Of a stretch of DNA of 64,000 nucleotides, positions 5,754 through 55,114 are shown one piece after another. The stretch covers positions 87,639-151,638 of the forward strand of contig DAIDHJ010000001.1 of assembly GCA_027451965.1 (NCBI GenBank). Reading direction: 5' to 3'. This DNA comes from Candidatus Adlerbacteria bacterium. Its GTDB lineage: Bacteria > Patescibacteriota > Minisyncoccia > Phycocordibacterales > SBAW01. The notes below the pieces were generated by a model that was not told where the DNA came from, did not search any database, and saw only the letters and a list, made by a program, of their open reading frames with translations. A program made the translations under genes and the position numbers. Numbering within the stretch: the first letter of the stretch is position 1; every line of letters starts with the position of its first letter.

Positions 5754-5768
5754 ATAATCAAAGAGTAC

Positions 5769-39228: not shown

Positions 39229-39329
39229 AAGGTCTCACTAGGATAGGCGAGTGCACAGTGGGTGTCAAAAGAGCTGAAAATGTGGAGAACGTGTGGAGAA
39301 GTTGTTGAGAAGTCATTCCTGAGGTATAT

Positions 39330-39358
39330 TGAGCACTGTTCGTCCGCTTGATACAATT
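39330..39358 (+). promoter_or_regulatory. candidate sigma-70 promoter for rpmH-rnpA-yidC-jag (TTGAGC-17-TACAAT)
   Basis: ttgagc (39330-35), 17-nt spacer, tacaat (39353-58), ~9 nt before the rpmH ATG, so a near-leaderless mRNA. Two TGTGGAGAA DnaA-box-like repeats lie at 39281-39300 just upstream. Confidence 0.4.
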
Positions 39359-39366
39359 ATCTCTTC

Positions 39367-39513
39367 ATGTCACAAACCTATCAGCCAAAAAAACGCAAAC
39401 GAGCAAAAACGCACGGTTTTCTTGTGCGCACCAAGACTCCAGGAGGCCGTAATGTGCTTCTTCGCCGCCGTCGTAAAGGCCGAGTGCGTCTCGCAGTGAA
39501 GCGCAGTCGCTAA
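39367..39513 (+). CDS. rpmH: 50S ribosomal protein L34 (48 aa; below the ORF-track cutoff)
   Basis: [48 protein letters not shown] is near-universal L34. Confidence 0.9.
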
Positions 39514-39520
39514 AAGCGGT

Positions 39521-39844
39521 ATGCTCCCCTCTTCCCGCCGTTTGCGCGCCAGCGAAGTGCGGGTCATTATTGCTACAGGGCGCAGTATTCGAGGAGAATA
39601 CCTGTCGGCGAAATATCGCCTCGCGTCTGGACCGTTCCGCAGTGCCATTGTGGTATCAAAAAAGCTTGCGAAAACAGCAGTGATGCGAAATAGGTTGCGC
39701 CGGTGGACATACAACGCCCTTACACAGCAACCATTTCCCAAAGGTATAGAGGTGGTTATTTTTATACAAAAGAAACCAACCATCGCACCAGTATCTGCAC
39801 TTGTCCGCGATCTCACACATCTATGTTCCAAACTATCCTCGTAG
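39521..39844 (+). CDS. rnpA: ribonuclease P protein component
   Basis: Basic 107-aa protein with RNRLRRW (RNR motif), immediately after rpmH. Confidence 0.75.
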   Translation: MLPSSRRLRASEVRVIIATGRSIRGEYLSAKYRLASGPFRSAIVVSKKLAKTAVMRNRLRRWTYNALTQQPFPKGIEVVIFIQKKPTIAPVSALVRDLTHLCSKLSS

Positions 39845-40539
39845 CACCCCTCTATAACAGTTTTATTTTCCTTGTGGACCTTACCCATGGAAACGTAGGG
39901 TGGGCAATCATCCTGCTTACGCTATGCATACGCGTGCTGTTTTATGGGGCTTTTACTGCATCTATAAAAACACAAATGGGGATGCAAGAAGTCCAAGGAG
40001 AGCTTGCTGACATCAATGAAACCTACAAAGATAATTCTGAAGAACGTGCAAAACGCACGATGGAGCTGTTTAAAGAGAAAAAAATACGACCATTTGCCGG
40101 TTTGTTAGCACTGATTGTACAAATTCCAGTATTTCTAGCACTTTACTTCGCACTGTTCCGGGAAGGGTTGCCGCACATTGCGACACAACTACTCTATCCA
40201 TTTGTGCATATCCCCACCACCATCACCACGGTATTTATAGGAATTCCTTTGCTTGTGCCGCATAACCTCATGCTTGCGGGCATAGTCGCCATTACGCAAT
40301 ACATTGCCATCCATTTTTCCTTGGCGCGTACTGCTTCTGTATCCCACCATCTTTCCAAAGAGCAGGAAATGGCACAGAGCATGCAGCGGGTAACCATGTT
40401 GTACACCATGCCGCTCATTCTCGGGTTTTTGAGCTATTCATTTCCTGCAGCGGTAGGCCTTTATTTTGCAACAGGAAATATTGTTTCTATCGTGCAAGAA
40501 TTGATCATTCGCCGACAGTTGGTGAAGAAATCGGCATAA
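39823..40539 (+). CDS. yidC: membrane protein insertase YidC (short, Gram-positive/CPR type)
   Basis: ...NVGWAIILLTLCIRVLFYGAFTASIKTQMGMQEVQGELADINETYKDN...AKRTMELFKEKKIRPFAGLLALIVQIPVFLALY is the YidC core. Start chosen at MFQTIL. Confidence 0.8.
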   Translation: MFQTILVAPLYNSFIFLVDLTHGNVGWAIILLTLCIRVLFYGAFTASIKTQMGMQEVQGELADINETYKDNSEERAKRTMELFKEKKIRPFAGLLALIVQIPVFLALYFALFREGLPHIATQLLYPFVHIPTTITTVFIGIPLLVPHNLMLAGIVAITQYIAIHFSLARTASVSHHLSKEQEMAQSMQRVTMLYTMPLILGFLSYSFPAAVGLYFATGNIVSIVQELIIRRQLVKKSA

Positions 40540-40558
40540 TCTTGAAAGCCCCTCCCCT

Positions 40559-41038
40559 TTGCGGTATGGTGGCTACATGGACGACTCCTTGGTACAACTT
40601 ATTACCGAATTACTTGAGAAACTTGATGTACAAGTAGAACACATCGCTCTTGCTCCAGGAACACGAAAGATAATCGCAATCACTTCTCCTGAATCAAAAC
40701 GGCTCATCGGTCCGCATGGAGAACATTTACGTTCTCTTGCTGCACTTGCACGGCGGCTAGCAGAAACTAAATTTGGTCCGGAAATAAATTTTAGTATCGA
40801 TGTAAATGGCTACTATGAGCGGCAGATGGAACAAGTGCGCAGCAATGCTCGCATGCTCGCTCAGCGCGCTCGATTGTTTAAGTACGATATTGAAATGAGC
40901 CCCATGTCCCCGTATGAACGGTTGGTCATTCACGAACTGTTTGCTGAAGATCCGGAAATCGAAACGCGCTCGGAGGGAACGGGGAAATTCCGTCATGTAG
41001 TGCTCCATTATCGCGGCAGTCAGCAGACTACTGTGTAA
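40559..41038 (+). CDS. jag: Jag/KhpB-like RNA-binding protein (KH + R3H domains)
   Basis: C-terminal R3H: YERLVIHELFAEDPEIETRSEGTGKFRHVVL. Position after yidC. Confidence 0.7.
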   Translation: MRYGGYMDDSLVQLITELLEKLDVQVEHIALAPGTRKIIAITSPESKRLIGPHGEHLRSLAALARRLAETKFGPEINFSIDVNGYYERQMEQVRSNARMLAQRARLFKYDIEMSPMSPYERLVIHELFAEDPEIETRSEGTGKFRHVVLHYRGSQQTTV

Positions 41039-42248
41039 GGCGGACCCCCCAAAGGCTCCTATCTCCTCGGGAGATGTACATGAGATAGCGATCATCAGGA
41101 GAAATAGTTAATTGAGTGATACTTGTCTGTGAGCCCCCGTCTTGTCCTGGTACGGCGATCGCACTGCTCGTATTCCCATTAGAAAAATCTATCCCTTCAA
41201 TATAATCAGGTATATTTACAATACCTTGATGCCACGCGTCCAAATAACTAGCATCTACGTTTTGGGTTGGCATAGCACAATATAATCGGTAAGTGACCAG
41301 AGCATCCCATACACATTTTTCAGGGAAAACATCAAATACAGATACATCTCCTCCGCTATGCAGTAGGTGTACGTAACTCAAATTTACCCCATTGGAGCGA
41401 GTTTGGTATAGAATTTCACTTAAATCTTTATTTGCCAGCGCAGTAAGCCCATCCCCATACAGCAGTGGAACAATAGCACCACTTTTTACGCCTACTTCAA
41501 ATACTATTCCTGGAGTATCTGCTGCTGATTTTGTTTGAAGGATGATCATTTGTGGTGTTGGCCAGGAAATCAGTAATTGAGTGAAGGGTATGGAAAAAAG
41601 TTCTCGAGGGTTATGACCATCAACAGCGGCAACATATCCATTTACACCTCCCGATTGATTTTTTAGTAAGTAAGAAATGCTTCCTCCATCAGGAGAAACA
41701 GCTAATCCAAGTATATTATCAGGAAGAAACTGCACCTCTTTTGGGGATGATGGAGTAGTGGAGGTTGAAAGAGTGAACCCTAAGTAAATAGTTTTTATTG
41801 TATTGGTAGTGTCTACATACTGGAGCAATACCGCATTGCCTCCTTGGGCCCATACTGCCTTTTGTGCACCGGGAATAGTTACATCGGAAATAGTTTCTGG
41901 TGCAACACCCGACATATCAAGCGGTACATCAGATACATGCCCAGTATCCTGCATGATAAAACGAGCTATGGTAGTAGTTGGATTGTTTTGTTGAATAAAT
42001 ACTGCACTAGTGACTGGTCCTGGGGATATATTAAAAATTTTTTCGTTTGAATTACTACTTTCTGTAGTTTGACTAGTTAAAGTATTCCCATTTCCAGAAG
42101 AAAAAGTAGTATTTCCTGCACTCGGAAATCCGAACGAGCTAGTAGAAACTGGAAACGGAGCACTGGATCTGAAGAATAGAAACCACATCCCTGCACCCAA
42201 TAAAATGATGATTGCTCCAATACTCAAAAATATAATACGACGTGACAT
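41028..42248 (-). CDS. secreted/membrane-anchored hypothetical protein, beta-propeller-like (last gene of the T4SS-like operon)
   Basis: N-terminal TM IIFLSIGAIIILLGAGMWFLFF. Repetitive S/T/G-rich beta-strand segments with DGxxxxY-type repeats. Confidence 0.45.
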   Translation of the reverse strand: MSRRIIFLSIGAIIILLGAGMWFLFFRSSAPFPVSTSSFGFPSAGNTTFSSGNGNTLTSQTTESSNSNEKIFNISPGPVTSAVFIQQNNPTTTIARFIMQDTGHVSDVPLDMSGVAPETISDVTIPGAQKAVWAQGGNAVLLQYVDTTNTIKTIYLGFTLSTSTTPSSPKEVQFLPDNILGLAVSPDGGSISYLLKNQSGGVNGYVAAVDGHNPRELFSIPFTQLLISWPTPQMIILQTKSAADTPGIVFEVGVKSGAIVPLLYGDGLTALANKDLSEILYQTRSNGVNLSYVHLLHSGGDVSVFDVFPEKCVWDALVTYRLYCAMPTQNVDASYLDAWHQGIVNIPDYIEGIDFSNGNTSSAIAVPGQDGGSQTSITQLTISPDDRYLMYISRGDRSLWGVRLTQ

Positions 42249-42251
42249 AGA

Positions 42252-43157
42252 TTATTGATTGTATCCGCAAACCCACCATTGCATTGAATTGCTATTTGAT
42301 CCATAAAGATTTAAACCACCATTAGGATCAGGAACCGCAATACAGGCATTATATTGGATGGTAGTTGGACTTGTGAATTTTTTATTCCACTGTGAACAAT
42401 TCTGTGTTGGATCATCAGATTGACCAAAACTACCGTGATATGCCAGTTGACACTCCTGTCTATCAGCTTCCAATTCTCCCATAGCAAGAGATTTTAAATC
42501 CACAGGATTTTCTGGAGGACAAACCGTCCCCTGACGCTCAACCCAATAACATTTCTGATTTAGTGCTATTTGTTGTTCAATATACGTATTATTTCCATCA
42601 TTACATATCGTTGTAACGCCATATTCGTTGCAAGTAGTTTTTTGATTTGCTGTTGAAGTGGTATTTGAACCAACAGTAGGAAGAGAAAGACTAATTGTGA
42701 CTAAACCTGGATTAATTTTATTAAGAATGATATATGCTCCTAGTAATAACAATAGTCCAAATAATGCTGCTTGTATTCTACTTTTTGCCTGAGCTTTTTT
42801 CCCTCCTATTTCAGAAGTCATGTAACTAATTCCATAGAACACAAGTACGAGTACCGCAAAAACTACACCAAAAGCTAAAATTAATTTAAAAAATCCATTT
42901 ACTAGTGTTGGAAAATCTGATGGGTTTCCTAGTTTACTCTGCGCTCCATAAGTAAATGGAAGTGGTTCAAGAGGGGTGTATTGTAATGGTGCAACAGCAT
43001 TTCCAGAGTTGGGATTTTGTGTGGGTAGAGTTCCAGGAGGGACAGGTTTGGGAGTAGGAGATGGTGCGGGATTAGAAATAGGAGCAGCTGCATATACCGT
43101 ATATGTTGAACTTACAAATATTATCGAAACAATACTCAGTAATAAAAATTTATTCAT
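42252..43157 (-). CDS. VirB2/TrbC-like pilin-domain protein with Pro-rich N-terminal and Cys-rich C-terminal extensions
   Basis: Signal peptide, PxP-rich linker, then two hydrophobic helices separated by a short basic loop (FFKLILAFGVVFAVLVLVFYGISYM - TSEIGGKKAQAKSRIQ - AALFGLLLLLGAYIIL), which is the VirB2/TrbC topology. A ~150-aa domain with 10 Cys follows. Confidence 0.4.
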   Translation of the reverse strand: MNKFLLLSIVSIIFVSSTYTVYAAAPISNPAPSPTPKPVPPGTLPTQNPNSGNAVAPLQYTPLEPLPFTYGAQSKLGNPSDFPTLVNGFFKLILAFGVVFAVLVLVFYGISYMTSEIGGKKAQAKSRIQAALFGLLLLLGAYIILNKINPGLVTISLSLPTVGSNTTSTANQKTTCNEYGVTTICNDGNNTYIEQQIALNQKCYWVERQGTVCPPENPVDLKSLAMGELEADRQECQLAYHGSFGQSDDPTQNCSQWNKKFTSPTTIQYNACIAVPDPNGGLNLYGSNSNSMQWWVCGYNQ

Positions 43158-43160
43158 ATC

Positions 43161-44177
43161 TTAAAAAGAAAGTGATGATTGTTGGCCGAATAGTAATTGC
43201 AAAGCCGTATTTGCTGATTGTAGTATTTGATCACTGTTAGTGTTTTGAATACTGAGTCCCACCGTTGCCTCTCCGGAGGCATTATTCCCATTTTTTCGCA
43301 AGGTTAAGATACCCTTATTACTATCGGGTCCAGAAACATCCTGACCATTTACTGTCCATTGATAAGTAAGGGTATTATTTCCCTGTGCATCAGTGGCAAA
43401 ATAGTATGGTTCTGCTTGTAAAGTCATCTCATTTCCTTGAAATGGAGCACTATTCACTAATCCGGTATCAAAAAGTTCTCCTCGTAATGGGTCTCGTATA
43501 TAGAATAGTAACTGCGGCGAAGTTGCTGGAATAGTTATATCTCCCTCACCTACTTGTGTGCCATTATAATACACAGCAACAGATACCTCTTCACTACTTT
43601 GTAATTGATCTCCTTGGAAGGTAAATGTAGTTTTTCCTAACCCAGACTGTTCAGGTACTAATGTTCCATGCAAACTCCACTGAAAAGAGAGTGCTTTAGA
43701 AGAAAGAAAAAATTTATTAACTACAATTTCTGGAAATGCTACTACTGTTACTGTAGATCCAGGACTATATAGAGATAGACCTTTGTAAAATATAGGCACC
43801 GAGGTATTTGCTTCCCACACAAGATTTGTTAATGAAGGAGAAATAATAAATGTATGAGTGAATGTTCCTTCACTAGGAGAATTAATTGTTACTGTAATAA
43901 TATTCTCACTTCCCAATGCTCCTGCGGTAAACGTAAAAGAACTGTCTCCTATTCCAGAACTTAGTATTTTATTATCCTGACTCCAGGTAATAGATGCATT
44001 ACCTAAAAAAGAACCAACACCAGTTGCTGTTATCTCTATAGATTGATTTGGTCCAGGATTCTGCGGAGTTACACTATATTCTATAGGCGCAGGTTGAGTA
44101 GAGTTAGTGACTTGTGCAAGCACCGGCGTTGCCATACTAAAAGTGAATATGAGTAAAAAGGATAGTAATATCCTCAT
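43161..44177 (-). CDS. secreted hypothetical protein with repeated Ig/FN3-like beta domains
   Basis: Signal peptide MRILLSFLLIFTFSMATPVLAQ. Repeated SxTxxxNG/QW motifs. No enzyme motifs. Confidence 0.4.
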   Translation of the reverse strand: MRILLSFLLIFTFSMATPVLAQVTNSTQPAPIEYSVTPQNPGPNQSIEITATGVGSFLGNASITWSQDNKILSSGIGDSSFTFTAGALGSENIITVTINSPSEGTFTHTFIISPSLTNLVWEANTSVPIFYKGLSLYSPGSTVTVVAFPEIVVNKFFLSSKALSFQWSLHGTLVPEQSGLGKTTFTFQGDQLQSSEEVSVAVYYNGTQVGEGDITIPATSPQLLFYIRDPLRGELFDTGLVNSAPFQGNEMTLQAEPYYFATDAQGNNTLTYQWTVNGQDVSGPDSNKGILTLRKNGNNASGEATVGLSIQNTNSDQILQSANTALQLLFGQQSSLSF

Positions 44178-44185
44178 ACTACCTA

Positions 44186-44914
44186 TTATGCAGCATATTT
44201 TTCAGTTCCAGGAGTAATGCCATCAATATTTCTTTTAGACTGTTTATAGCGTGTTCCAAGTACTACATTATTACTTGGAGTAGATGTTTCCTTTTTTCTA
44301 TTTTGATTCATACTTTGCGCGGCAGCTTTAGAAGCTCCAATAGCCGCTCCTGCAGCTATTACTTCTGGCCCCCCTTCTACTCCCTTTATTGCACCAGCAA
44401 CAGCACCTTTTAGTATCTCTGGAGCAGCCTTTTTTAGGTTTTTCGTAGCTTTTTTTACAACAAGACGGAATACCATAACACTCCAAAGAGGCGCAACATC
44501 TGAAAAGGGAATTATCTTAGCAAGATAAAATGGCATAACAATCATTCCGTCAAACATACCGCTTATGGCGAAAAGTAATACTATAAATCCTGTTCCAATA
44601 CTTAGACTGATGGCTATGTTAACAATCATTCCGAGAAATATGGCTATAGGAGTTGCCGCTGGGGCGAGAAGTGGGTCAAGTAAAGAGCCAAGAATACCCC
44701 CAACCGCTGCTCCAGCAGTAGTGCAAGTAGTAAGAATTGTACCCCCAAAATGAGCACAAATCTTCCACCCAAGAAGCCCCCCTGTACTCGCACCGCCCAA
44801 AGTTCCTGTAAATGCTCCTATAAATCCGAAAAAAACTTCAAGCCCTAATTGAACCAGATCAAGAAATAGTGCAATAAAAAAATACGGAAGTGATCGAATA
44901 ATTAAACCTTTCAT
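44186..44914 (-). CDS. Gly-rich polytopic membrane protein of the T4SS-like operon
   Basis: About 4 TM helices rich in G/A. Its start overlaps the VirB4 stop by 4 nt. Confidence 0.4.
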   Translation of the reverse strand: MKGLIIRSLPYFFIALFLDLVQLGLEVFFGFIGAFTGTLGGASTGGLLGWKICAHFGGTILTTCTTAGAAVGGILGSLLDPLLAPAATPIAIFLGMIVNIAISLSIGTGFIVLLFAISGMFDGMIVMPFYLAKIIPFSDVAPLWSVMVFRLVVKKATKNLKKAAPEILKGAVAGAIKGVEGGPEVIAAGAAIGASKAAAQSMNQNRKKETSTPSNNVVLGTRYKQSKRNIDGITPGTEKYAA

Positions 44915-46743
44915 ATCTTTGAGGAAGTAGTAATAGCTGCATCTGCGCGTTTATTTCTTAGTGCAAGTATTTGTGAAGGATCTGAAGTAATAATCTGATC
45001 TTCAGTGTATGAAGCTATGATTTTAATAGCAACATGTTTCAATCCGGCAAAGAAAATTCCTTCACCAACATCACTTTCAAGTAGTAAGTATTTCTCTTCA
45101 TCAGAAAGGTTGAATGTTTTCTGTAAATTATCAATAGTGGTCGGTGATTGTTTAAGAAGTAATTGTAGAGAGGAATTGGTAATCATGGGTAATCCATACG
45201 GGCTTTTTAAAAAGTCATCAACATCTTGCGTGATAGTAGCAAGACCGAGATAATATTTTCTTCCTCGTTTTGCCATACCGTATAAGAAAGAAGCAGTATC
45301 TTCAGATTTCATCATCCACCATGCCTCATCAATAACGAGTAGTCGTTTTTTAAGATCTTTACGAACTGCATTCCATATGTAGTGCGTAATGATATACATC
45401 GCAACCGGTTTAAGATCATCTTCCATATCACGCACAGAAAAAACGACAAATTTCTTGTTTATATCAACATTTGTTGATTTATTTATGAATCCAGACCAAG
45501 TGCCTTGTGTGTATTTTGATAATCTTTGTACCAGAGATTCGCTTCCTTCAATACTGCGTAACACCATTTCAAAATCTGAAAGTAATGGTGGTTCAATCTG
45601 TGTGAAGTCTGATTCAATAGTTATATCTTTCAGTGCGTACGTTTCGGTAATAGCTTTATCAATAATCGCATCTTCTTCTGGAGAAAGACCGCCAAGCATG
45701 ATTCGGAATAAACCAACCAGTGAAACGATATTACTACGTAGTATATCTGCAGAACTCTCATCTTCTCTTGGATGCGGTAAATCAAAAGGGTTTATATGAT
45801 CTTCTGAATTAAGAGAAATATTGAAGTATCTTCCACCGACTGCTTGTGAAAGAAATTCGTATTCTCGTTCTGGGTCTATAACAATAACTTCCGTATCAAA
45901 CATTAATGTGCGCAATATTTCTAATTTAGTCGCATATGATTTTCCTGACCCTGATTTTGCAAAAATAACAGAGTTATAGTTCTCCAAACTAAAACGATCA
46001 AATAGTATGAGTGATGCATTATGTCTATTTACTCCATATAAAATTCCTTTATCAGAAGTAAGATCGAATGATACAAAAGGAAACACTGAAGAAAGTGGAG
46101 ATGAGTTAAGTTTCGTTTGTATAGCAAGTTCATTACTTGCAATGGGAATTACACTACGAAATCCCTGCTCTTGTTGAAATAAAGCTGGTTTTACATATAC
46201 CAATCGAGATTCAAGCATAGATTTAATTTCACTCTCTGCCTTATCAAGCTCTTCAGTTGTGGAAGCATAGATAGTGATATAAATACTTACATTGAAAATA
46301 CGTTCCTGAGCTTGTTGGAGTTGATCTCGTAGATTTTCAAGATCTTGATATGCAGTATCGAGTATTGGATCTCGTACCAATCCTTTTTCTTCCCTGGTCA
46401 TTATTTGACTCTGCACCTCAGCTACTTTTTTCTGAAATTTCTTAAGAATATCTGCAGAATCTATTGGTTCAACAAAAATAGAAATATCCAGTACTCGGTC
46501 CAAGTTAATTACCGGAGCGAACCAACTATCAGTAAGTGTTCTTGGATATGACATAACAAAAAATGTTCTAGCAATTTTGTCTCCCAGATTAATTTCTCGA
46601 GGAGTTATTTTTAATGCTGAAGGAGCAATAATGTCTTGTAATTCAAGCACGCCTTGTTTGTATATTTGTTCAGGAAGTATTGGTGTAACTACCGGTGCAG
46701 TAGTTGGAGATGATTTATTTTTTAAAAAATCAAACAGTGCCAT
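44911..46743 (-). CDS. virB4: VirB4/TrbE/CagE-family type IV secretion ATPase (C-terminal ATPase domain, 610 aa)
   Basis: Walker A VIFAKSGSGKSY, Walker B LLVIDEAWWMM, downstream LGLATITQDVDDF motif. Confidence 0.8.
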   Translation of the reverse strand: MALFDFLKNKSSPTTAPVVTPILPEQIYKQGVLELQDIIAPSALKITPREINLGDKIARTFFVMSYPRTLTDSWFAPVINLDRVLDISIFVEPIDSADILKKFQKKVAEVQSQIMTREEKGLVRDPILDTAYQDLENLRDQLQQAQERIFNVSIYITIYASTTEELDKAESEIKSMLESRLVYVKPALFQQEQGFRSVIPIASNELAIQTKLNSSPLSSVFPFVSFDLTSDKGILYGVNRHNASLILFDRFSLENYNSVIFAKSGSGKSYATKLEILRTLMFDTEVIVIDPEREYEFLSQAVGGRYFNISLNSEDHINPFDLPHPREDESSADILRSNIVSLVGLFRIMLGGLSPEEDAIIDKAITETYALKDITIESDFTQIEPPLLSDFEMVLRSIEGSESLVQRLSKYTQGTWSGFINKSTNVDINKKFVVFSVRDMEDDLKPVAMYIITHYIWNAVRKDLKKRLLVIDEAWWMMKSEDTASFLYGMAKRGRKYYLGLATITQDVDDFLKSPYGLPMITNSSLQLLLKQSPTTIDNLQKTFNLSDEEKYLLLESDVGEGIFFAGLKHVAIKIIASYTEDQIITSDPSQILALRNKRADAAITTSSKI

Positions 46744-46744
46744 A

Positions 46745-47395
46745 TTATTTTTGCACTATAGCTTGTAATGGTTTTTCTAGTTCTCCTGGATTGAATAATT
46801 TATAAAATAATTCAATCATTTCTTCTGTGCCCAATGCCACAACACGCACACCGGTACGTACCAACCCTTGTTCAATAACAGAAATTCTCTGTTCTAATTG
46901 TGTTTGATACTGTTCAAATTGTTCATCAGTTAGTGTAATAGTTGCATTTGTTCCTGGAATAAGTGTATTTAGACTATTAAGTATATTTCCTTTAGCAATA
47001 AACGGAGGATCGTATGGTACTACGATGAAGAAATTTTTTGCCATGATATTGGCACGTTCTGTGAAATCTTTAATAAAAGTTATATATTCTCGTATCTGAA
47101 TTTTCATTAAATCATCCAATTCTGCGGCATACCGCTCTTCCAACAATGCAACATATGGGCGTATATCCAAATCTCTGGATTCAATAAAAAACTGTACTGG
47201 AAACTCTAATGAATTCAGAAAATTCTGAAATTGAGCAATAATAGCTTGTTGTTCATCAGTACTTTTTAAAGAAAGATTAATGGAAGAAGCCATAAGCAAG
47301 GAGCGCAATTGTCCATTTTTAAGGATTACAATACCATCCCGCACTTCTTTAATAGGGACAAAATTTTGAGTTGCTTGTGCTGTTACTGTGGCCAT
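46745..47395 (-). CDS. VirB4 N-terminal (CagE_TrbE_VirB-like) domain encoded as a separate 216-aa ORF
   Basis: ...IVILKNGQLRSLLMASSINLSLKSTDEQQAIIAQFQNFLNSLEFPVQFFIESRDLD resembles the N-terminal domain of VirB4/TraE/PrgJ proteins. Its stop is 2 nt before the ATPase ORF start. Confidence 0.45.
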   Translation of the reverse strand: MATVTAQATQNFVPIKEVRDGIVILKNGQLRSLLMASSINLSLKSTDEQQAIIAQFQNFLNSLEFPVQFFIESRDLDIRPYVALLEERYAAELDDLMKIQIREYITFIKDFTERANIMAKNFFIVVPYDPPFIAKGNILNSLNTLIPGTNATITLTDEQFEQYQTQLEQRISVIEQGLVRTGVRVVALGTEEMIELFYKLFNPGELEKPLQAIVQK

Positions 47396-47397
47396 AT

Positions 47398-47838
47398 TTA
47401 TATTTTAAAATCCTTGGAATCACTCTCTTCTTGTAGTGCTTTTGTTTGATCTTTTATATTGAGTGACCAAGATAATTCTTTGAGTTTATTTTGTGAAAGT
47501 TTCGGAACTTCCACTGAGGAAGGAGCTATCATTTTTGTCCCTTTTTTTGTAACAGTTTGTTCTCGTTGTTTCCACAAATATAACTTTACTCCCAGCGCAT
47601 AGGTGAATGCATGTTCTAAGGTATTAATGAGTGGTTGCTCGTTTATTTTATAGAATGCAAGTGCAACAGACAGTGTTACAACTGGAATTGCAGCAGGAAT
47701 AGCGATATATAGTGGTAGTAAGGTAAAAAAAACAAGACACAATCCCCCGCCGCCAGCCAGGTAAATAAACTGTTTTAAGGTAAGGGGACCAAATATCTTA
47801 TCCTCTACCTCGATAAACTGAGGAACTTGATACTGCAC
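47398..47838 (-). CDS. PrgI-family (VirB3-like) small membrane protein
   Basis: MQYQVPQFIEVEDKIFGPLTLKQFIYLAGGGG followed by a hydrophobic hairpin: the PrgI/VirB3-analog pattern immediately upstream of VirB4. Confidence 0.55.
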   Translation of the reverse strand: MQYQVPQFIEVEDKIFGPLTLKQFIYLAGGGGLCLVFFTLLPLYIAIPAAIPVVTLSVALAFYKINEQPLINTLEHAFTYALGVKLYLWKQREQTVTKKGTKMIAPSSVEVPKLSQNKLKELSWSLNIKDQTKALQEESDSKDFKI

Positions 47839-47860
47839 AGTATTAAGTATATCGCAGATT

Positions 47861-48427
47861 CTACTCTATTGGTTCTCGATACGGGTCAGTTTTGTAGGCT
47901 GATTCAGGATGTGTTTGTGGAGGTGTAAGCTCTTGTGATACAGGAGAATCAATTTTAGGTAACCGTTGCGTAACTGGTGTTGAGAGAGCTGTATCCACAC
48001 TCAGTGGCAATGTTGTATGTACAGGTTGTTCTTCAGAATTAGGATTAATAACAGTATTCGAGCTAGTTATAGTCGGTGCTGTTTCTATAGAATGTACCTG
48101 TTCTTGTGGAATACTATTTTCCATATCCTTACGAATCTTGCTGAGCAATAATTCATCTACATCTTTCGCTATAGACGCGGCCGTATCTGGAGCAACCTCC
48201 AAACTTTCAGCAATATTTGAATTAAAATCCTCGGGTTCTATAAAACCTAATATGAAAGAAACCACTTCATGTTCCAAATTACCCAATTGATCAAGATGCA
48301 GTCCGTGTTTCTCACCTATTTTTGTAAGAATATCTCCCATCTCTTCACTGTAGATGAATTCTTGTGTTGTTTTTGGTAATGCGTGCAAACGAGCAACTGC
48401 ATCTTCAGATGAATATATGCTTGTCAT
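47861..48427 (-). CDS. hypothetical soluble protein of the T4SS-like operon
   Basis: No TM, no motif. Start set at MTSIYSS to avoid overlap with the VirB6-like gene. Confidence 0.35.
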   Translation of the reverse strand: MTSIYSSEDAVARLHALPKTTQEFIYSEEMGDILTKIGEKHGLHLDQLGNLEHEVVSFILGFIEPEDFNSNIAESLEVAPDTAASIAKDVDELLLSKIRKDMENSIPQEQVHSIETAPTITSSNTVINPNSEEQPVHTTLPLSVDTALSTPVTQRLPKIDSPVSQELTPPQTHPESAYKTDPYREPIE

Positions 48428-48446
48428 ATAAATATATAGTACTATA

Positions 48447-50819
48447 TTACGCTTCTTTCTTTTTAATAATATCCATTTGTCCTTCTTGTGTTTCTCCGGT
48501 AAGACGGGAGATATGCGTTGGCGTTTCTCGGACTGTTTTTTCAAGATTTTTTAGTGCGCTATGTATTTGTTGTGCTGTATCAAGATCTATCTTTGCTGCG
48601 AATGTCTTTTCTTTGTCCTTAGAATTCTTTGCTTGTGTAAGGGCAAACTTATATCCATCAACATTGCTTTGTGATTTAGAGAGTGCATCACTCACTGTTT
48701 TTGCGGTAAGTCGAGATCCATTTTTAATTTCTAATGGAAGTTTATCAAGCGGAAGTTTCAATGTTGTTTGCAATTCATCCAATTTCTTAAGAAGTTTATC
48801 TCCTGTATTTATTGAAGCCTCTACCGAATTTGATTTTATTTGTTGCGGCAAATTTGCAAGCGCTTGCTCAACAGCTGCACGCTCTGGAAGTATATTTTTC
48901 CATTGTTCATTTTCTGCTAGCCACTTTTGAGATTCTTTTATCCATTGCTCTTTAATATCTTCTGGTATTGGCAAAGATTTAGAGTGGAGGTCTTTTCGGA
49001 TAAGAGATCTTTGCATTATCTCTTTACTACGTTGTTTTCGAGCTTCAGTTTGAGCTTCAATCTGAGCATCAAGTTGAGCACGTTTTGTTTCCAATGCCTC
49101 CTTGCTTTTATTACTCCAAATACTTGTAACTTGTTCTTTTGTATCTTTTCGTATATTGTCATTTTCTTCAATACTACTTTTCTTTTGTTGTTTGGTAATA
49201 ATGGGAGCAATTGTTTGAAGTGGTTTATCTATTGTTACCATTCTTGCAAGCGTTTCTATCTCCTTCGTTTTCATATTTGTGATTCGGTTGGCATCTTTTT
49301 GATCAACTTTTTGGTTGTTAGTTAGAGCTTCGTGTACTCGTGTAACCGCTTTTTTATTTTCAGCATCACGGAAATTCTGATTTTCTTCCACGTTTCGTTT
49401 ATATGTACGGTTTAGGAATGAGTTTCTTGATTCAAGACCAAGAACATTCTTATCCATAGCAGCCCTTGTAGTTTTTTCTCGGATTGTATGGCCGAGTTTT
49501 GTATTTCCAAAAGAGGACAATCTGAATTTCTCATCCACTTTCTGTAATCCTAGACCTACACTGCCGTGATATACTTCATTTGCTCCACTTTTTGCCACAC
49601 CAACTGCAGCTCTCGGTATCATTGTGGACCATTTTTGGACTTGTCCGGTAACACTGCCAGCAATTTTATGTGCAAATTTGTTTCCTTCAGCAGCGATAAC
49701 GTCCACTGACTGTAGACCGAAAAATAGCATTGCCATCACGATACCTAATCGTATAACTAATGCTGCAATACCAATAAATAATCCTTGATTTGGATTCCCA
49801 AATATTTGTGTAGCAATATCTCCCTTAAGACCATTACTCATGTTTGTCGCCGTTTCTACTAAAATGTAAAACATGAAAAGAAATGCAGCGGGGTAAATAG
49901 AAAACTCTATAAGTGCTTTTTGCCAGCGATCATACAAAGAGGAACCCTTACTAAGGGCACGTGCTGCAAACGCAAGAGGTGCAAGAATTAATACAAACCA
50001 AAGCACAATTGTACGCATAAGAAACTTAACTCCTGCAGTAGTAAATGCAAATATCAAAATCCAATATGCAGCAGCCACTGCTATAAATAAAGTAGAGAGT
50101 GTAATAATCTCAGTGACTGTACCAAATGCACTAAATCCTAACTTGTCTTTCCAGCTTTGGAAGGCAGTGTTATCAAACATATGCTGTAATCCAATTTCAT
50201 TCATGATTGGTTCAGTAAGATCTTTTGTTCCGGCACTTGAGAAACCGCCTATACCTCCTAACACTGATGTTAAATTAGAGGCAGCTCCCCCTTCTGTTTC
50301 AAACGCTGGAGCTGAAATGACATTATAAAATTCGATTCCAAGAATATTTCCCACATCAATAACGACGCGGGTAATCAGGAAGCTAAAATTCACCAAAAGT
50401 GCCATCACAATAAGCATTGAAAGCATGCGCATAGTGCCACCAGTCTCAGCTTCAAATAGGATTGTTATGGCTATGTAAATCAGAATAAAAAGAAAAGCCA
50501 TATTGGCTATACTCAATGCCGTTTGCCACCCAGTTGAAAGAAAATCAATAGCGTATCCGCTACTGCTTAAACTCAGTTTTACAATAAGGTCAAATACATA
50601 CGCAATAATAAATGCAGCATCTGCAGATAGTGCGGGAATGATATAAACTAATCCGGTAATACAAGTGCCGAGATCTGTACAAAAGTTATCTGGTATTAAA
50701 CTACCTGTGGTATATGTACCTGCGCCATACGTAATTGCAGGAGCAAAAGAAGCTATTACTACAATAGCTATCATGCATAAAATTAAAATTTTACTGTATG
50801 ATTTATGTGCCAAATGCAT
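48447..50819 (-). CDS. VirB6/TrbL-like polytopic membrane protein with ~350-aa charged coiled-coil C-terminal extension
   Basis: About 8 TM helices in the first 440 aa (VirB6/TrbL architecture), then K/E/Q-rich helical sequence. Confidence 0.55.
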   Translation of the reverse strand: MHLAHKSYSKILILCMIAIVVIASFAPAITYGAGTYTTGSLIPDNFCTDLGTCITGLVYIIPALSADAAFIIAYVFDLIVKLSLSSSGYAIDFLSTGWQTALSIANMAFLFILIYIAITILFEAETGGTMRMLSMLIVMALLVNFSFLITRVVIDVGNILGIEFYNVISAPAFETEGGAASNLTSVLGGIGGFSSAGTKDLTEPIMNEIGLQHMFDNTAFQSWKDKLGFSAFGTVTEIITLSTLFIAVAAAYWILIFAFTTAGVKFLMRTIVLWFVLILAPLAFAARALSKGSSLYDRWQKALIEFSIYPAAFLFMFYILVETATNMSNGLKGDIATQIFGNPNQGLFIGIAALVIRLGIVMAMLFFGLQSVDVIAAEGNKFAHKIAGSVTGQVQKWSTMIPRAAVGVAKSGANEVYHGSVGLGLQKVDEKFRLSSFGNTKLGHTIREKTTRAAMDKNVLGLESRNSFLNRTYKRNVEENQNFRDAENKKAVTRVHEALTNNQKVDQKDANRITNMKTKEIETLARMVTIDKPLQTIAPIITKQQKKSSIEENDNIRKDTKEQVTSIWSNKSKEALETKRAQLDAQIEAQTEARKQRSKEIMQRSLIRKDLHSKSLPIPEDIKEQWIKESQKWLAENEQWKNILPERAAVEQALANLPQQIKSNSVEASINTGDKLLKKLDELQTTLKLPLDKLPLEIKNGSRLTAKTVSDALSKSQSNVDGYKFALTQAKNSKDKEKTFAAKIDLDTAQQIHSALKNLEKTVRETPTHISRLTGETQEGQMDIIKKKEA

Positions 50820-53103
50820 AACATTGTTGCAGCTGCGTGCTTGTATCTTGGTTTATGGTTGCAAGCTGTGATTGTAATGTGGTGCGATTCTGTTGCGCGG
50901 TAGTCAAATCAGTAACCGTAATGAGTGATCCGTTAGATTGATCTGTGGTATAGGTTGTTTGTACCGTTTGCACGTCAGATGCTGAGTTTGCATTTAGTAC
51001 CTGTGTTTGTAATTGTTGCAATAGTGCAATAGCGCTATTAGCAATAGTTATTTGATTATTATCTGCATCTACTTGTTCTTGAAGGGAGGTAATTTGCGCT
51101 TCAGTACTTGAAGCATTTGCTGCTGCTTGTGCTTGTTTATCAGCTGAAAATGCAGTTGAAGTAGCAGCTGATCCCCAACAATTTGCAAGTGTTTGTAGTT
51201 GTGCTTGTGTATTTTGTATATCTTGAATAGATCCTTGTTCTATATATCCATATTGCTGTGCCGTATTTGTATCTCCCTGCATTTGTGTCAGTAGTTGTTG
51301 AGCAAGGTCTGCCCCTGGTTGTGTTCCTCCGCCTGTGGAAGACGGTCCTCCTCCAGAAAGATTAGAAACACCCCCTTGGAGAGCAGTTTGGATAAGTTGA
51401 TTCATAAGTGCACTGATAATCTGATCAAAATCTTGTGCTGCATTTAATTGATCAATCGGCGCACCAAGTGTTTTGCTAAGCTGGTTAGCAATAACAGTGC
51501 CTGGGGTAGTGACTGTACAATGGCACCCAACGGGACATACAGTGCCAACATTGGAACTTTTTGTTCCTTGTTGTTGATTCGCACAACTATTTACTTGGTA
51601 AATACTCAAGAATCCTTCCGGAGAAATACTTTGTGAAAGCTTCTGATCTGCTTGCGAAATAGCTCCTTGTAATCCCGAGCTTAATTGAATATATGCACCA
51701 AAGGGATTGTTAAGTGGTGCATTGGTAAGTGAAATAAGTGCAGGCCATCCTCCAGCAGAAAAATCGCCATGTAAGAAGTTAGTTATATTAGACGTTACCT
51801 GGTTTAAGGTACAAGAATTGGTGCTAGTAGGAGGAGCTTGGCTTGTGGCATAGCTTTGTGCAACTGCTATTTTTACTTGCAATGCAAATGGACTACATAG
51901 GAATGAGAAGTTACTGCTCTGTAAATACGCACCAGCGGCCTGATTAGCTGCATCAGCAAATATCTGCTGGTAATCTTGAACAAAGGTAGGAGAACCATGG
52001 AATCCACTGTTTATCCAATTCACCGTATTTGCAGTAATTTGATTGAGAATGGTTCTGGCAAGATAACGTGCCATGCAGCTCAAAAATTGATTACCAGCAA
52101 CAGTGTTTTGCTGCGCAGTATTTTGTGCTGCATTAGCAGCGGTAATTCCAGCTGCTAGTTCAAGAGGAACATCAGATACATGAACCCCTAATGCTGCATT
52201 TGCTGTTGCCGATGCGCCTACTGATGTTCCCGCTGCCCCTCCTAAAGAATCTGCAGTTGCTTGTTCCTGTACAAGGAGTGAGCATGCAGCTGCAGTAATG
52301 CCTGCATCAAGTAGTGTGCTCGTAATACCCCCTCCTGTATTTCCTCCGCCTCCAGTGATAGTTCCAGGGTTAGGGTTGAATATATTTCCTGAACCGGTTG
52401 GGCTTGAACTACTCACACCATTGATAGGTGTGGGGTTGAATGGATTTCCACCGCCAGGAATCCACACACCTCCTATTGGAGTAGTGGTTGCCGGATTTCC
52501 TCCATTAGGACATTCTGCACATGCGCTTCCTTGTGCACAGGTTTGTGTAGTGATGTGGCATGACCCATCTGTGTTTTGCGTGCCATCAGTACATGTTTGT
52601 GTTCCATCATTTCCACAGGAACAAGAAAAACTACAAGTGCCTCCAACAGGGGTTGTGGTAGTGCCTGGTCCAGTTATTCCAGTACCTCCTGTTCCTGGTG
52701 GTGATCCGCCAGTACCTCCCGGATACCCTCCACTACCTGAATAGACAGGATACGTATATTGTCCACCTGTATAGGTGCCGTTTTGTGAAGATCCAACACC
52801 AGTATTGTTATGGTTGATAAAACCAGTAAAAGTATTGAATAGCGAACCAAGACCAGTTAAAACACCAGAAGTTCCATACGCTAGTGGATTTCCAGATCCA
52901 CCAGAACCTTGATTTTGGGTTACCCCAACATTTGATGTATTTACACCAGTAGTAGTACTAGTGCTGCTAGTTTGTTGCTGTTGTCCAAGATACCAAAGCC
53001 ATAAAAAAAGCAGTACTGCTGCAATTAGTAGCGCTCCAATGAGTATCCAAATAATGCGTTTAACGGTTGGGTTCATGGTGTAGGAGGCAAGAATACATTC
53101 CAC
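50803..53103 (-). CDS. 766-aa N-terminally anchored Gly/Thr/Asn-rich protein with a Cys-rich module
   Basis: TM IIWILIGALLIAAVLLFLWLWYL. GGTGG/NTGGG low-complexity regions. Cys module GGTCSFSCSCGNDGTQTCTDGTQNTDGSCHITTQTCAQGSACAECPNGG. C-terminal Q/T/A-rich helical region. Confidence 0.45.
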   Translation of the reverse strand: MECILASYTMNPTVKRIIWILIGALLIAAVLLFLWLWYLGQQQQTSSTSTTTGVNTSNVGVTQNQGSGGSGNPLAYGTSGVLTGLGSLFNTFTGFINHNNTGVGSSQNGTYTGGQYTYPVYSGSGGYPGGTGGSPPGTGGTGITGPGTTTTPVGGTCSFSCSCGNDGTQTCTDGTQNTDGSCHITTQTCAQGSACAECPNGGNPATTTPIGGVWIPGGGNPFNPTPINGVSSSSPTGSGNIFNPNPGTITGGGGNTGGGITSTLLDAGITAAACSLLVQEQATADSLGGAAGTSVGASATANAALGVHVSDVPLELAAGITAANAAQNTAQQNTVAGNQFLSCMARYLARTILNQITANTVNWINSGFHGSPTFVQDYQQIFADAANQAAGAYLQSSNFSFLCSPFALQVKIAVAQSYATSQAPPTSTNSCTLNQVTSNITNFLHGDFSAGGWPALISLTNAPLNNPFGAYIQLSSGLQGAISQADQKLSQSISPEGFLSIYQVNSCANQQQGTKSSNVGTVCPVGCHCTVTTPGTVIANQLSKTLGAPIDQLNAAQDFDQIISALMNQLIQTALQGGVSNLSGGGPSSTGGGTQPGADLAQQLLTQMQGDTNTAQQYGYIEQGSIQDIQNTQAQLQTLANCWGSAATSTAFSADKQAQAAANASSTEAQITSLQEQVDADNNQITIANSAIALLQQLQTQVLNANSASDVQTVQTTYTTDQSNGSLITVTDLTTAQQNRTTLQSQLATINQDTSTQLQQCYAFGT

Positions 53104-53963
53104 ACATTTCCTGGCTCAGTACTCTTAAAAAGTATACCGTCTCCTTGAAATTGTTGAGCAATATTTGTGAACACTCGATTTTCTTCTGAGATCAGAGAAC
53201 TAAATTGATTGAGTGATATCATTCCTCGTAATGGATCACTCAGTAGGGTTTCCATGCCGACAATATTTTCTGCAGCTCCTTCAAAATCATTCACGATTAT
53301 CAAATGAAGCGGTACCACTGTTTGTGGTACTGGAACTTTAAGTAAGGCTTGTGCTAATGTTTTGTATTGTTTTGCAAGTGGAGGAAGCGCTTGTAGTGCT
53401 TTTGGATCATTGTTATCTGCTGCATTTCCAACCGCTTCAAGTACGGCGAAAGAATTTGCGCCTGTATATTGCTGCATAATTGTCATCACTTCGTTTCCAT
53501 ATGCATGCAAGTTTGCATTTGAACTGCTTACTATAGTGAGATCTTGTTGTGTGTAGGTTACTGAAGCACTTTTAGGGATTTGAGCAGTTGCATCAGCAAG
53601 AATGGCTTGCTGTGTAGGAGTATCATTACCAAGTCCTTGTGATTGTGCGTTAGTAAGTTCAATCAGGAGAGTTCGTCCTACTGTATCCGTCAAATTAGCT
53701 GTCTGCGCTTCTTTAAGAATTTGATTTATATCTGACTGACTTACTGGTTGTGGAAGGCTAGAAGAAGCATTTTGTGCCTGTATAGTAGCAAGTGTGTCTT
53801 GCCAAGAACTTGTATCAGTAGGAGTATTTGCCACTCCAATATTTCCTGCTGTTTGCGGTTCGGTAATACGCTGAGCAGCGTACACTAACCCAGTAGCCAA
53901 AAGGAGTGAGCCGACAATCAAAATAAATTGTGTACTGGGTAAATAACGCTGAAATGACTTCAC
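53073..53963 (-). CDS. N-terminally anchored hypothetical protein, first gene of the T4SS-like operon (VirB8-like topology, unproven)
   Basis: Short cytoplasmic N-terminus, one TM (FILIVGSLLLATGLVYAA), ~260-aa extracytoplasmic domain. Confidence 0.4.
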   Translation of the reverse strand: MKSFQRYLPSTQFILIVGSLLLATGLVYAAQRITEPQTAGNIGVANTPTDTSSWQDTLATIQAQNASSSLPQPVSQSDINQILKEAQTANLTDTVGRTLLIELTNAQSQGLGNDTPTQQAILADATAQIPKSASVTYTQQDLTIVSSSNANLHAYGNEVMTIMQQYTGANSFAVLEAVGNAADNNDPKALQALPPLAKQYKTLAQALLKVPVPQTVVPLHLIIVNDFEGAAENIVGMETLLSDPLRGMISLNQFSSLISEENRVFTNIAQQFQGDGILFKSTEPGNVWNVFLPPTP

Positions 53964-53986
53964 TTCTTTAGTATACTATTAAAAGT

Positions 53987-54346
53987 ATGCGATTCCCTTC
54001 TTATTTTTTTCTCTCCCTCATATTGGTAGTCGTTCTGATGGTGCCAACCTATACATTTGCTGCATTTGGTTTTTCATTTGGGGGTAAAATTACTTCTCCG
54101 CCCTTACCATGCGCTAATATACCCGGTGCATTCCAAATGATGGTACTCAACGAGCTTTTGGTGCCAGTACCTATATCGGTTATTTGGGCCCCTCCGCCAC
54201 TTACTCTGACTTTTCTTGCTGGACCCCCGACTCATGTAGGGCAAACAGTACTAGGTGCTGCATCACTTACTCCTACTACCTGTGTTGTGGCTGGTATTCC
54301 TCTGCCGGGATTTCTTATGCAAATTGTTGGAACCAGTGTCTTGTAG
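53987..54346 (+). CDS. small secreted hydrophobic Pro-rich protein (119 aa), divergent from the T4SS-like operon
   Basis: Signal peptide plus two hydrophobic segments. It overlaps the ksgA 3' end on the other strand; coding status uncertain. Confidence 0.3.
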   Translation: MRFPSYFFLSLILVVVLMVPTYTFAAFGFSFGGKITSPPLPCANIPGAFQMMVLNELLVPVPISVIWAPPPLTLTFLAGPPTHVGQTVLGAASLTPTTCVVAGIPLPGFLMQIVGTSVL

Positions 54347-55111
54347 TGCAAGCGCAAGCCACTGCTCCAGTGAGATATCTTCTGCACGTGCCTGTTGTGG
54401 AATACCATCTGCTTGTAATGCTTCTGATACCTTTTCTCCAAATATCATTTCTATATTTCGTTTTAATAATTTTCGTTTTTTTCCGAATCCTGCATGTACT
54501 AGTGTAAAGAAGTGTTCCTCATGCGCTCTGTTGCTGAATCGTTTTCGCGAAATATCAGTAATACTTAGTATCGCCGAATCTACCTTAGGTGGCGGTGTGA
54601 ATGCTCCGCGTGGAACACTAGAAACGATATGCGGAATGCCATATGCTTTTACAGAAAGGGACAGAATACTTTCTTTTGTATCTCGAACAATTCGCCGCGC
54701 TACTTCTTTTTGTAATAGAAATACAATTTGTGTTGGTTGGTGTTTTGCAGTGAGAAACAGTTTCAGTAATGCTCCAGAGATATAGTAAGGAATATTTGCA
54801 ATTACTTTATATGACTGAGGAAGTTTCAGATCTGCAAGCCGTACTTCCAATATATCGGCTTCAATAATACGAAATTGTTTTTTTTGTATCTCTTTACTAA
54901 ATATAGTAGTGAGCGTAGGTATCAATCGCCGATCTTTTTCAATCGCTATGACATGAGCGCCTCGAGCAAGCAACTCCTTAGTCAACACACCTTCTCCTGG
55001 ACCGATTTCAATCACAGTATCTCCAGGGGCTACCGCACCTGCGTCAGCGATTACACGTACGTAATGTGACGAATGAAGGAAATGCTGTCCGAGCGATTTT
55101 TTCTTGTACAT
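54263..55111 (-). CDS. rsmA: 16S rRNA (adenine1518/1519-N6)-dimethyltransferase
   Basis: LGQHFL..., SAM motif VIEIGPGEGVLTKEL, NIPYYIS. Confidence 0.85.
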   Translation of the reverse strand: MYKKKSLGQHFLHSSHYVRVIADAGAVAPGDTVIEIGPGEGVLTKELLARGAHVIAIEKDRRLIPTLTTIFSKEIQKKQFRIIEADILEVRLADLKLPQSYKVIANIPYYISGALLKLFLTAKHQPTQIVFLLQKEVARRIVRDTKESILSLSVKAYGIPHIVSSVPRGAFTPPPKVDSAILSITDISRKRFSNRAHEEHFFTLVHAGFGKKRKLLKRNIEMIFGEKVSEALQADGIPQQARAEDISLEQWLALALQDTGSNNLHKKSRQRNTSHNTGSRSK

Positions 55112-55114
55112 AGT

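Follow-up and report, generated by a model that had tools for sequence, protein, structure and literature searches.

What is encoded by the eleven genes that lie tightly packed beside jag on the minus strand of a Candidatus Adlerbacteria contig: a conjugative element, a DNA-uptake machine, an adhesive pilus, or an apparatus for exchange with a host cell? The genes occupy positions 41028-53963 of the stretch of DNA analyzed here (64,000 nucleotides; positions 87,639 to 151,638 of contig DAIDHJ010000001.1, assembly GCA_027451965.1), hereafter the window, and are numbered O1 to O11 (Table 1). A first-pass annotation, made from the letters of the sequence without database searches, had read them as a stripped-down core of VirB4, VirB3, VirB6 and pilin proteins resembling a type IV secretion system (T4SS), in a bacterium of small genome and possibly episymbiotic habit, and not as a canonical conjugative element. 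This reading is upheld by the family matches, the fixed chromosomal position and the lack of mobility genes among the window open reading frames (ORFs) that were scanned. We are highly confident that the locus is a chromosomal, vertically inherited T4SS of the Paceibacteria (Parcubacteria), belonging to a lineage-specific branch of MPF_FATA and serving most likely for host exchange.

The Patescibacteria account for a large share of bacterial diversity, and the T4SS is among their few conserved envelope machines and is essential in the sole species tested. Almost all of the ultra-small members have it on the chromosome beside the origin of replication. VirB4 was found in 2,417 of 3,035 Patescibacteria genomes, where it forms a clade nested within MPF_FATA (Quinonero-Coronel et al. 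2025, PMC12102498). Its most frequent partner is TrsD, and PrgI/VirB3, VirB6 and VirB2-like pilins are encoded near virB4; VirB8 is barely detectable outside the class ABY1, relaxases are almost absent, and VirD4-like type IV coupling proteins (T4CPs) are common and usually distant (PMC12102498). A T4SS in Saccharibacteria had been noted earlier (McLean et al. 2020, PMC7427843), and a 2025 review considers these systems unique among monoderm ones and speculates on a pilus conduit to the host (PMC12857230). The system is thus already known from publications of 2020, 2023 and 2025, and the locus is a correct identification that leaves the picture unchanged, since the origin-proximal site, the pilin, TrsD and the absent relaxase have all been published (PMC12102498, PMC10633639, PMC7427843). 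It represents the Paceibacteria form of the T4SS completely and cleanly, and what value remains lies in a provisional annotation for its accessory subunits and in a compositional anomaly. Here we present a classification and a set of features for the locus, together with the readings that compete for it.

Synteny and descent

The eleven genes were compared by tblastn with a set of 80 loci from different species of Paceibacteria (Adler-, Nomura-, Kaiser-, Campbell-, Taylor- and Zambryskibacteria). The order uvrD-ksgA-[O11 O10 O9 O8 O7 O6 O5 (O4) O3 O2 O1]-jag-yidC-rnpA-dnaA-dnaN was recovered, in the same position, in essentially every full-length locus (about 45), and the contig of the sister lineage, L082, matches the order of the cassette gene for gene. 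The comparison of synteny within the Patescibacteria that the first-pass annotation had suggested thus came out in its favor. The eleven-gene block is real, as the ORF list of the window confirms, and a chance origin is excluded, because the identical gene order recurs in essentially every full-length locus of the 80 fetched.

The median identity across these loci is 77% for VirB4, 60% for TrsD and 50% for PrgI (the last in 77 loci), compared with 53% for DnaA, 49% for KsgA and 41% for DnaN in the flanks and 26-35% for the accessory proteins. From these medians (VirB4 77% vs DnaA 53%, accessory proteins 26-35%) the ATPase is among the most constrained proteins of the region, under stronger constraint than DnaA, and the surface parts are quick to evolve. 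Conservation of VirB4 beyond that of DnaA across the class underlines the centrality of the machine. Among near relatives, the identity of VirB4 reaches a plateau at about 88%. Two further contigs are closely related to the window: L084 is co-specific (98% DNA identity) and L083 is 79% identical. According to per-gene identities, the operon genes and the flanks have the same nearest relative, L082, which indicates vertical descent.

Nucleotide composition

All eleven genes of the cassette have a G+C content at third codon positions (GC3) of 0.20-0.29, whereas most neighboring genes lie at 0.38-0.56; the overall G+C content is 0.386 in the operon and 0.470 in the remainder of the window. This step is peculiar to the species. 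In 42 related loci the cassette is, on average, slightly richer in G+C than its flanks (median difference +0.019), only two values being negative (lowest -0.009), and the sister contig L082 has no compositional step. The operon on L083 is likewise low in GC3, a value that refers to the operon only. L084 displays the same step as the window, but because it is 98% identical it represents the same species and is not independent. The low GC3 may stem from recombination with an unsampled sister of low G+C content or from codon selection. Horizontal replacement of the cassette from a distant clade was considered and rejected, as the per-gene identities place the operon and the flanks with the same sister.

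The compositional step, together with the homology of VirB4, TrsD and PrgI to components of Gram-positive conjugative elements, speaks for the decayed remnant of a plasmid or of an integrative and conjugative element (ICE) from which the genes for relaxase, coupling protein and integrase have disappeared. This reading is ruled out by the synteny across species, since full-length loci of other species have the genes in identical order at the identical site, between ksgA and jag/dnaA, and we consider it extremely unlikely. The conservation of VirB4 beyond DnaA, the intactness of all eleven ORFs, the shared nearest relative of operon and flanks, and the 40 of 42 related loci in which the cassette is not poorer in G+C than its flanks point in the same direction, and neither an integrase nor repeats nor a tRNA was found at the borders of the cassette.

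Core components of the secretion system

In profile searches, O5 matches NCBIfam NF045971 (CD1110-family VirB4) with 395 bits (cutoff 325) and PF19044 with 93 bits. It carries the Walker A motif AKSGSGKSY and the Walker B motif VIDEAW, on which the first-pass annotation had based its call of a VirB4 with a separate ORF for the N-terminal domain. That ORF is O6, which matches NCBIfam TrsD (1.3e-8). It can also be aligned with the profiles of CD1110 VirB4 (positions 2-114) and VirB4_plasma (positions 101-233), and PF26593 (TraC-like) was found on its orthologues. Both parts of the call are thereby borne out. The split between TrsD and VirB4 is native, with separate genes and no frameshift, because the 120 listed VirB4 homologues (87-100% identical) measure about 590-650 aa.

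A total of 8,000 homologues of O5 was retrieved, the best 120 of which are 87-100% identical. All of these 120 that bear a source name derive from Patescibacteria (Paceibacterota, Adlerbacteria, Nomurabacteria, Minisyncoccia). In a comparison of identities, as distinct from a tree, the closest homologues are 75-100% identical, and every organism-named one belongs to the Patescibacteria or to a Patescibacteria metagenome-assembled genome. The window's own VirB4 sequence is present in NCBI and ENA.

O7, which had been described as PrgI/VirB3-like with MQYQVPQFIEVEDKIFGPLTLKQF and a transmembrane (TM) hairpin, matches PF12666 (PrgI) with 40.8 bits (cutoff 27). The motif MQYQVPQFIEVEDKIFGPLTLKQF stands at the N-terminus (ORF 47398-47838), and the hairpin spans residues 25-51.

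The description of O9 as a VirB6/TrbL-like protein with eight TM segments held in part. About eight hydrophobic segments are present in residues 1-365, followed by a Lys/Glu-rich hydrophilic C-terminal region of ~420 aa, and PF04610 (TrbL/VirB6) matches 6 of 43 positional orthologues (best E-value 6e-5). O9 itself, however, has no direct Pfam match, and a search against PDB profiles yielded coiled-coil noise only. The residues W98, N144-F-S146, N158 and R269 are invariant in the orthologue alignment. A VirB6-like nature of O9 is therefore plausible via its orthologues only, i.e., transitively. The profile searches by which the first-pass annotation had wanted its VirB4, VirB6 and PrgI assignments judged thus gave direct matches for VirB4 and PrgI and an indirect one for VirB6.

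The pilin

O2 matches PF18895 (T4SS_pilin) with an E-value of 8e-6 and a score of 26.3 bits (cutoff 26.6), as well as, weakly, TrbC, Mbov_0395 and pLS20_p028; its orthologue on L082 is flagged as PF18895. The protein consists of a signal peptide, a Pro-rich segment and a two-TM pilin domain (residues about 60-154; TM segments at 92-110 and 128-146) with a basic loop, in agreement with its description in the first-pass annotation as a VirB2/TrbC-like pilin. A C-terminal extension of 150 aa with 8 cysteines follows. The pilin core of ~90 aa is conserved in 50+ loci, whereas the C-terminal extension varies by species from 0 to about 300 aa. O2 is the sole pilin-domain ORF of the window; in one of the related loci (L017), two pilin domains occur within one ORF.

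Accessory proteins

The remaining six proteins (O1, O3, O4, O8, O10 and O11) are uncharacterized. To the first-pass annotation they had appeared novel, which holds in so far as they are unannotated, but not in the sense of rarity: their synteny extends across the class, and one family, that of O10, comprises 6,073 representative clusters at E <= 1e-3, unnamed and without a Pfam model. The features it had listed for them (a beta-propeller, Ig-like repeats, a Gly-rich protein, a Gly/Thr/Cys-rich anchored protein and an N-terminal TM segment on O11) were all found again. Extracytoplasmic signatures recur among them, namely signal peptides or TM anchors, conserved Cys pairs and, in orthologues, TSP3, F5/8-C and Ig modules.

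O1 (detected in 68 of 81 loci) has a TM segment at residues 5-23. Its family profile matches TolB structures (8e-6), PD40 is found in 4 of 45 orthologues, and C312 and C324 are invariant. O3 (77 of 81 loci) has a signal peptide or TM segment at residues 3-21 and weak matches to Ig_3 and PKD; BiPBP_C occurs in 8 and Ig_3 in 3 of its 43 orthologues, and W..NG motifs are repeated in the alignment. These weak matches suggest that O3 may be a secreted protein with Ig-like repeats. O4 has no family match in Pfam and NCBIfam profile searches, and an iterative profile search picks up 45 of the 69 ORFs that are situated between VirB4 and O3 in related loci; its position is conserved, and its sequence evolves fast. 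O8 combines a helical N-terminal half with a Pro/Thr/Ser-rich tail, and neither a TM segment nor a family match was found in it by hydrophobicity and profile searches. The orthologues called on L082 and L083 have lengths of 190 and 186 aa, respectively, and tblastn matches were obtained in 51 of 81 loci.

In the predicted structure of O10, the TM anchor is followed by a disordered linker rich in Gly and Thr, a small beta unit rich in Cys, a helical core that is conserved (with the motif WINSGF..LCSPF) and a C-terminal bundle of long helices, the last with very high model confidence; no match was found among solved structures. In some orthologues the Gly/Thr/Cys-rich N-terminal region is swapped for F5/8-type-C (discoidin) or bacterial Ig-like modules. 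O11, which had been taken for a protein of VirB8 topology, is indeed predicted to combine an N-terminal TM anchor with an extracytoplasmic domain. A VirB8 fold was considered for this domain and rejected: the model built with 64 homologues is a four-helix bundle, and the NTF2-like alpha+beta fold of VirB8, PrgL and TraM is absent from the predicted structure.

The species-variable extracellular extension of the pilin and the lectin-like (F5/8-C) and Ig-like modules of the O10 orthologues would also suit an organelle for adhesion only, in which VirB4 assembles a VirB2-type filament accompanied by surface adhesins and no substrate passes, and so would the lack of a substrate-recruiting coupling protein among the scanned window ORFs. 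We regard this as unlikely, given that constraint has preserved both VirB3 and a polytopic, VirB6-like channel protein, that type IV pili already serve adhesion in Patescibacteria (PMC10633639, PMC11623550), and that protein secretion is possible for T4SSs without a T4CP, as in Ptl and the VirB system of Brucella (PMC12102498).

Mobility genes and DNA uptake

A total of 31 ORFs (the 11 of the operon and 20 other large ORFs of the window) was scanned for mobility and T4SS domains. None of them encodes a relaxase, a VirD4-type T4CP, VirB9, VirB10, VirB11 or an integrase, as the first-pass annotation had observed. Set against what defines a conjugative element, the locus thus shows no relaxase, coupling protein, integrase or replication module and no variable insertion site; it is invariant across species. 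At 28994-30676 (+), 12 kb from the T4SS, the window encodes a T2SSE ATPase of the PilB/GspE type that bears an MshEN domain at its N-terminus; this ATPase fits a type IV pilus system and not VirB11. RuvB is encoded after it (30947-31924).

The first-pass annotation had proposed DNA uptake or host-cell interaction as the function of the core. A competence machine of the ComB or Ced type would import environmental or host DNA into a genome unable to make nucleotides. Like ComB, the locus lacks a relaxase and a T4CP among the window ORFs scanned; VirB4 is weakly similar to CedB and CedD (2e-10 and 4e-3), and in the class ABY1 the T4SS genes co-localize with comF, recG and radA (PMC12102498). With 40 bits, however, the CedB match stays below the cutoff (700), so that VirB4 is not a member of that family, and no VirB9/VirB10-like matches were obtained in the scanned ORFs. 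In Southlakia, moreover, competence needs type IV pili and ComEC, and deletion of comEC ends transformation and leaves viability unaffected; the T4SS, by contrast, is indispensable there (PMC10633639, PMC12857230). The window, too, has its separate PilB-type ATPase. DNA uptake is thus disfavored by the Southlakia comEC result and the CedB score, and we hold it to be quite unlikely. Host interaction, the other half of the proposal, is supported by the homology, the fixed position and the lack of mobility genes.

Proposed function

The machine would most likely serve contact-dependent exchange with a host cell, by protein export or by import of host molecules, rather than conjugation, because no relaxase or coupling protein is linked to it and because its homologue in Southlakia is essential for epibiotic growth independently of ComEC. 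In the mechanism that we propose, VirB3, TrsD, VirB4 and the VirB6-like O9 would form a translocon in the cytoplasmic membrane together with the motor that extracts the pilin. O2 would polymerize to a short pilus or conduit, in which its basic loop would line the lumen, while the C-terminal extension, Cys-rich and variable, would be exposed on the outer side. The wall-spanning, host-contacting part would be made up of O1, O3, O10 and O11, which are anchored or secreted and would stand in for VirB8, for an adhesin and possibly for VirB1.

Several points weigh against host exchange by a T4SS of this composition. The score of the O2 pilin falls just below the cutoff of Pfam, the VirB6 assignment of O9 is transitive, weak and without a direct match, and no VirB8-fold or VirB1-type protein was identified within the cassette. 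The roles given to O1, O3, O4, O8, O10 and O11 are based on topology and position. The scan for mobility genes took in the operon and the large ORFs of the window, and as the search covers window ORFs, a distal VirD4-like T4CP or relaxase may be encoded elsewhere in the genome. Essentiality, finally, is known only from one species of Saccharimonadia, whose locus differs from the present one in its pilin array and its peptidase and lysozyme genes.

A more far-reaching version of the host-exchange reading is speculative, and we consider it rather unlikely as a whole. The six unannotated syntenic proteins would then form an extracellular, wall-spanning module specific to the Paceibacteria that replaces VirB8, VirB1 and the adhesins of Gram-positive systems; host range would be set by two hypervariable parts, the pilin extension and the lectin and Ig modules swapped into O10; the near-invariant VirB4/TrsD motor would drive the contact-dependent import of host material; and the GC3 trough would record a recent exchange of the whole cassette between sister lineages, i.e., a switch of host range by recombination.

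Organization of the cassette and neighboring genes

The eleven consecutive ORFs, as given in the ORF list of the window, run from O11 down to O1 (Table 1), and the first-pass description of a packed minus-strand block flanked by jag was confirmed, with jag, yidC, rnpA and dnaA on that side. Neighboring genes of the cassette overlap by at most 17 nt and are at most 22 nt apart, given the start of O8 at 48427 and that of O10 at 53076. These starts (that of O8 being approximate) are those placed by independent gene callers in the co-specific contig L084 and the sister contig L082. TrsD (O6) and VirB4 (O5) are separated by one base (TAA-T-ATG), and VirB4 and O4 share a 4-nt overlap. The R3H gene jag is convergent with O1.

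Table 1. Coordinates and features of the T4SS cassette and its flanks in the window
Feature	Position	Strand	Description
O11	53073-53963	-	296 aa; first gene of the cassette; N-terminal TM helix and extracytoplasmic all-alpha domain (predicted four-helix bundle)
O10	50803-53103	-	766 aa (757 aa from the start at 53076); predicted TM anchor, Gly/Thr-rich linker, Cys-rich beta unit and helical core
O9	48447-50819	-	790 aa; polytopic, putatively VirB6/TrbL-like ('extended VirB6')
O8	47861-48544	-	Small acidic protein; likely true start ATG 48427 (188 aa)
O7	47398-47838	-	146 aa; PrgI/VirB3-family membrane hairpin
O6	46745-47395	-	216 aa; TrsD/TraC-like, homologous to the N-terminal domain of VirB4
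O5	44911-46743	-	610 aa; VirB4-type T4SS ATPase, CD1110/MPF_FATA type
O4	44186-44914	-	242 aa; Gly/Ala-rich polytopic membrane protein with basic C-terminal tail
O3	43161-44177	-	338 aa; signal peptide, putative Ig-like beta repeats
O2	42252-43157	-	301 aa; VirB2-like T4SS pilin
O1	41028-42248	-	406 aa; last gene of the cassette; N-terminal TM anchor and TolB-like (PD40) beta-propeller
Origin-proximal flank	37888-41038	mixed	dnaA 37888-39228 (-), rnpA 39521-39844 (+), yidC 39703-40539 (+), jag/R3H 40559-41038 (+)
Upstream flank	53987-55111	mixed	Small secreted 119-aa ORF 53987-54346 (+), ksgA/rsmA 54263-55111 (-)

A signal peptide is clearly recognizable in the small ORF of the upstream flank. 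This ORF is transcribed divergently from O11, at a distance of 23 nt, and runs into the 3' end of ksgA. Nine related loci have homologues in the corresponding position, and the gene calls of L082 and L084 include a gene at this site. The region immediately upstream of the cassette (53964-57010) contains ksgA and uvrD, both on the strand of the cassette (-). Because these genes are co-directional and only 23 nt separate the start of O11 from the small ORF, the transcript of the T4SS may start upstream of ksgA or within the divergent small ORF. Scans of the locus for promoters and terminators returned nothing decisive.

Past ksgA and uvrD, 3.4 kb upstream of the cassette, a cell-wall hydrolase with the architecture LysM-LysM-Peptidase_M23 is encoded at 57378-58322 (+). 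Proteins with M23 and LysM domains were counted among the VirB1-like hits linked to virB4 in Paceibacteria (PMC12102498), and this peptidase could be the wall-opening enzyme of the system. At the other end of the window, a 522-aa protein with a MutH-type endonuclease domain (4326-5894, -) overlaps a C-5 cytosine DNA methylase (5676-7043, +), a pair that looks like a restriction-modification or Vsr-like system.

Comparison with known systems

In Gram-positive plasmid systems the genes are arranged in the order VirB3-TrsD-VirB4. With T4SSs of the pGO1/pSK41/pIP501 type (MPF_FATA; TrsC-TrsD-TrsE), the locus has this order in common, as well as a separate TrsD-like protein and a VirB4 of the CD1110 type. 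It differs in the lack of a relaxase, a VirD4-type T4CP, a TrsG/VirB1 hydrolase and a VirB8-fold protein, and in being fixed on the chromosome instead of carried by a mobile element. It also has a VirB2-like pilin, and the pGO1/pSK41/pIP501-type systems are generally said to be without one.

The T4SS cluster of Southlakia epibionticum ML1 (Saccharimonadia; SEML1_0006-0019) and its pilins were found by transposon sequencing (Tn-seq) to be essential for epibiotic growth, and no recognizable coupling or relaxase proteins were reported (Wang et al. 2023, PMC10633639). Both that cluster and the present locus are of the monoderm type, contain VirB2-like pilins, lie at the start of the chromosome and have no recognizable coupling protein or relaxase in the cluster. 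Southlakia has an array of six divergent pilins and, downstream of virB4, peptidase and lysozyme genes, whereas the locus described here encodes only one pilin, extended at its C-terminus, and its cassette is free of hydrolase genes, the nearest being that of the LysM-M23 peptidase 3.4 kb upstream.

The closest counterpart is the Paceibacteria arrangement of the Patescibacteria-clade T4SS, whose neighborhood was reported to contain dnaA, dnaN, rnpA, ksgA and rpmH (PMC12102498). VirB4, TrsD, PrgI/VirB3, the putatively VirB6-like protein and the VirB2-like pilin are shared, as are the chromosomal site by dnaA, dnaN, rnpA and ksgA, the unannotated neighbor genes and the lack of a nearby relaxase or T4CP. 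Nothing essential differs. What is added here are hints on fold and family for the unannotated genes (provisional folds of the subunits, a non-VirB8-like protein at the VirB8 position, the variable domain of the pilin and the size of the O10 family), which could guide structural or genetic work, and the species-specific GC3 trough.

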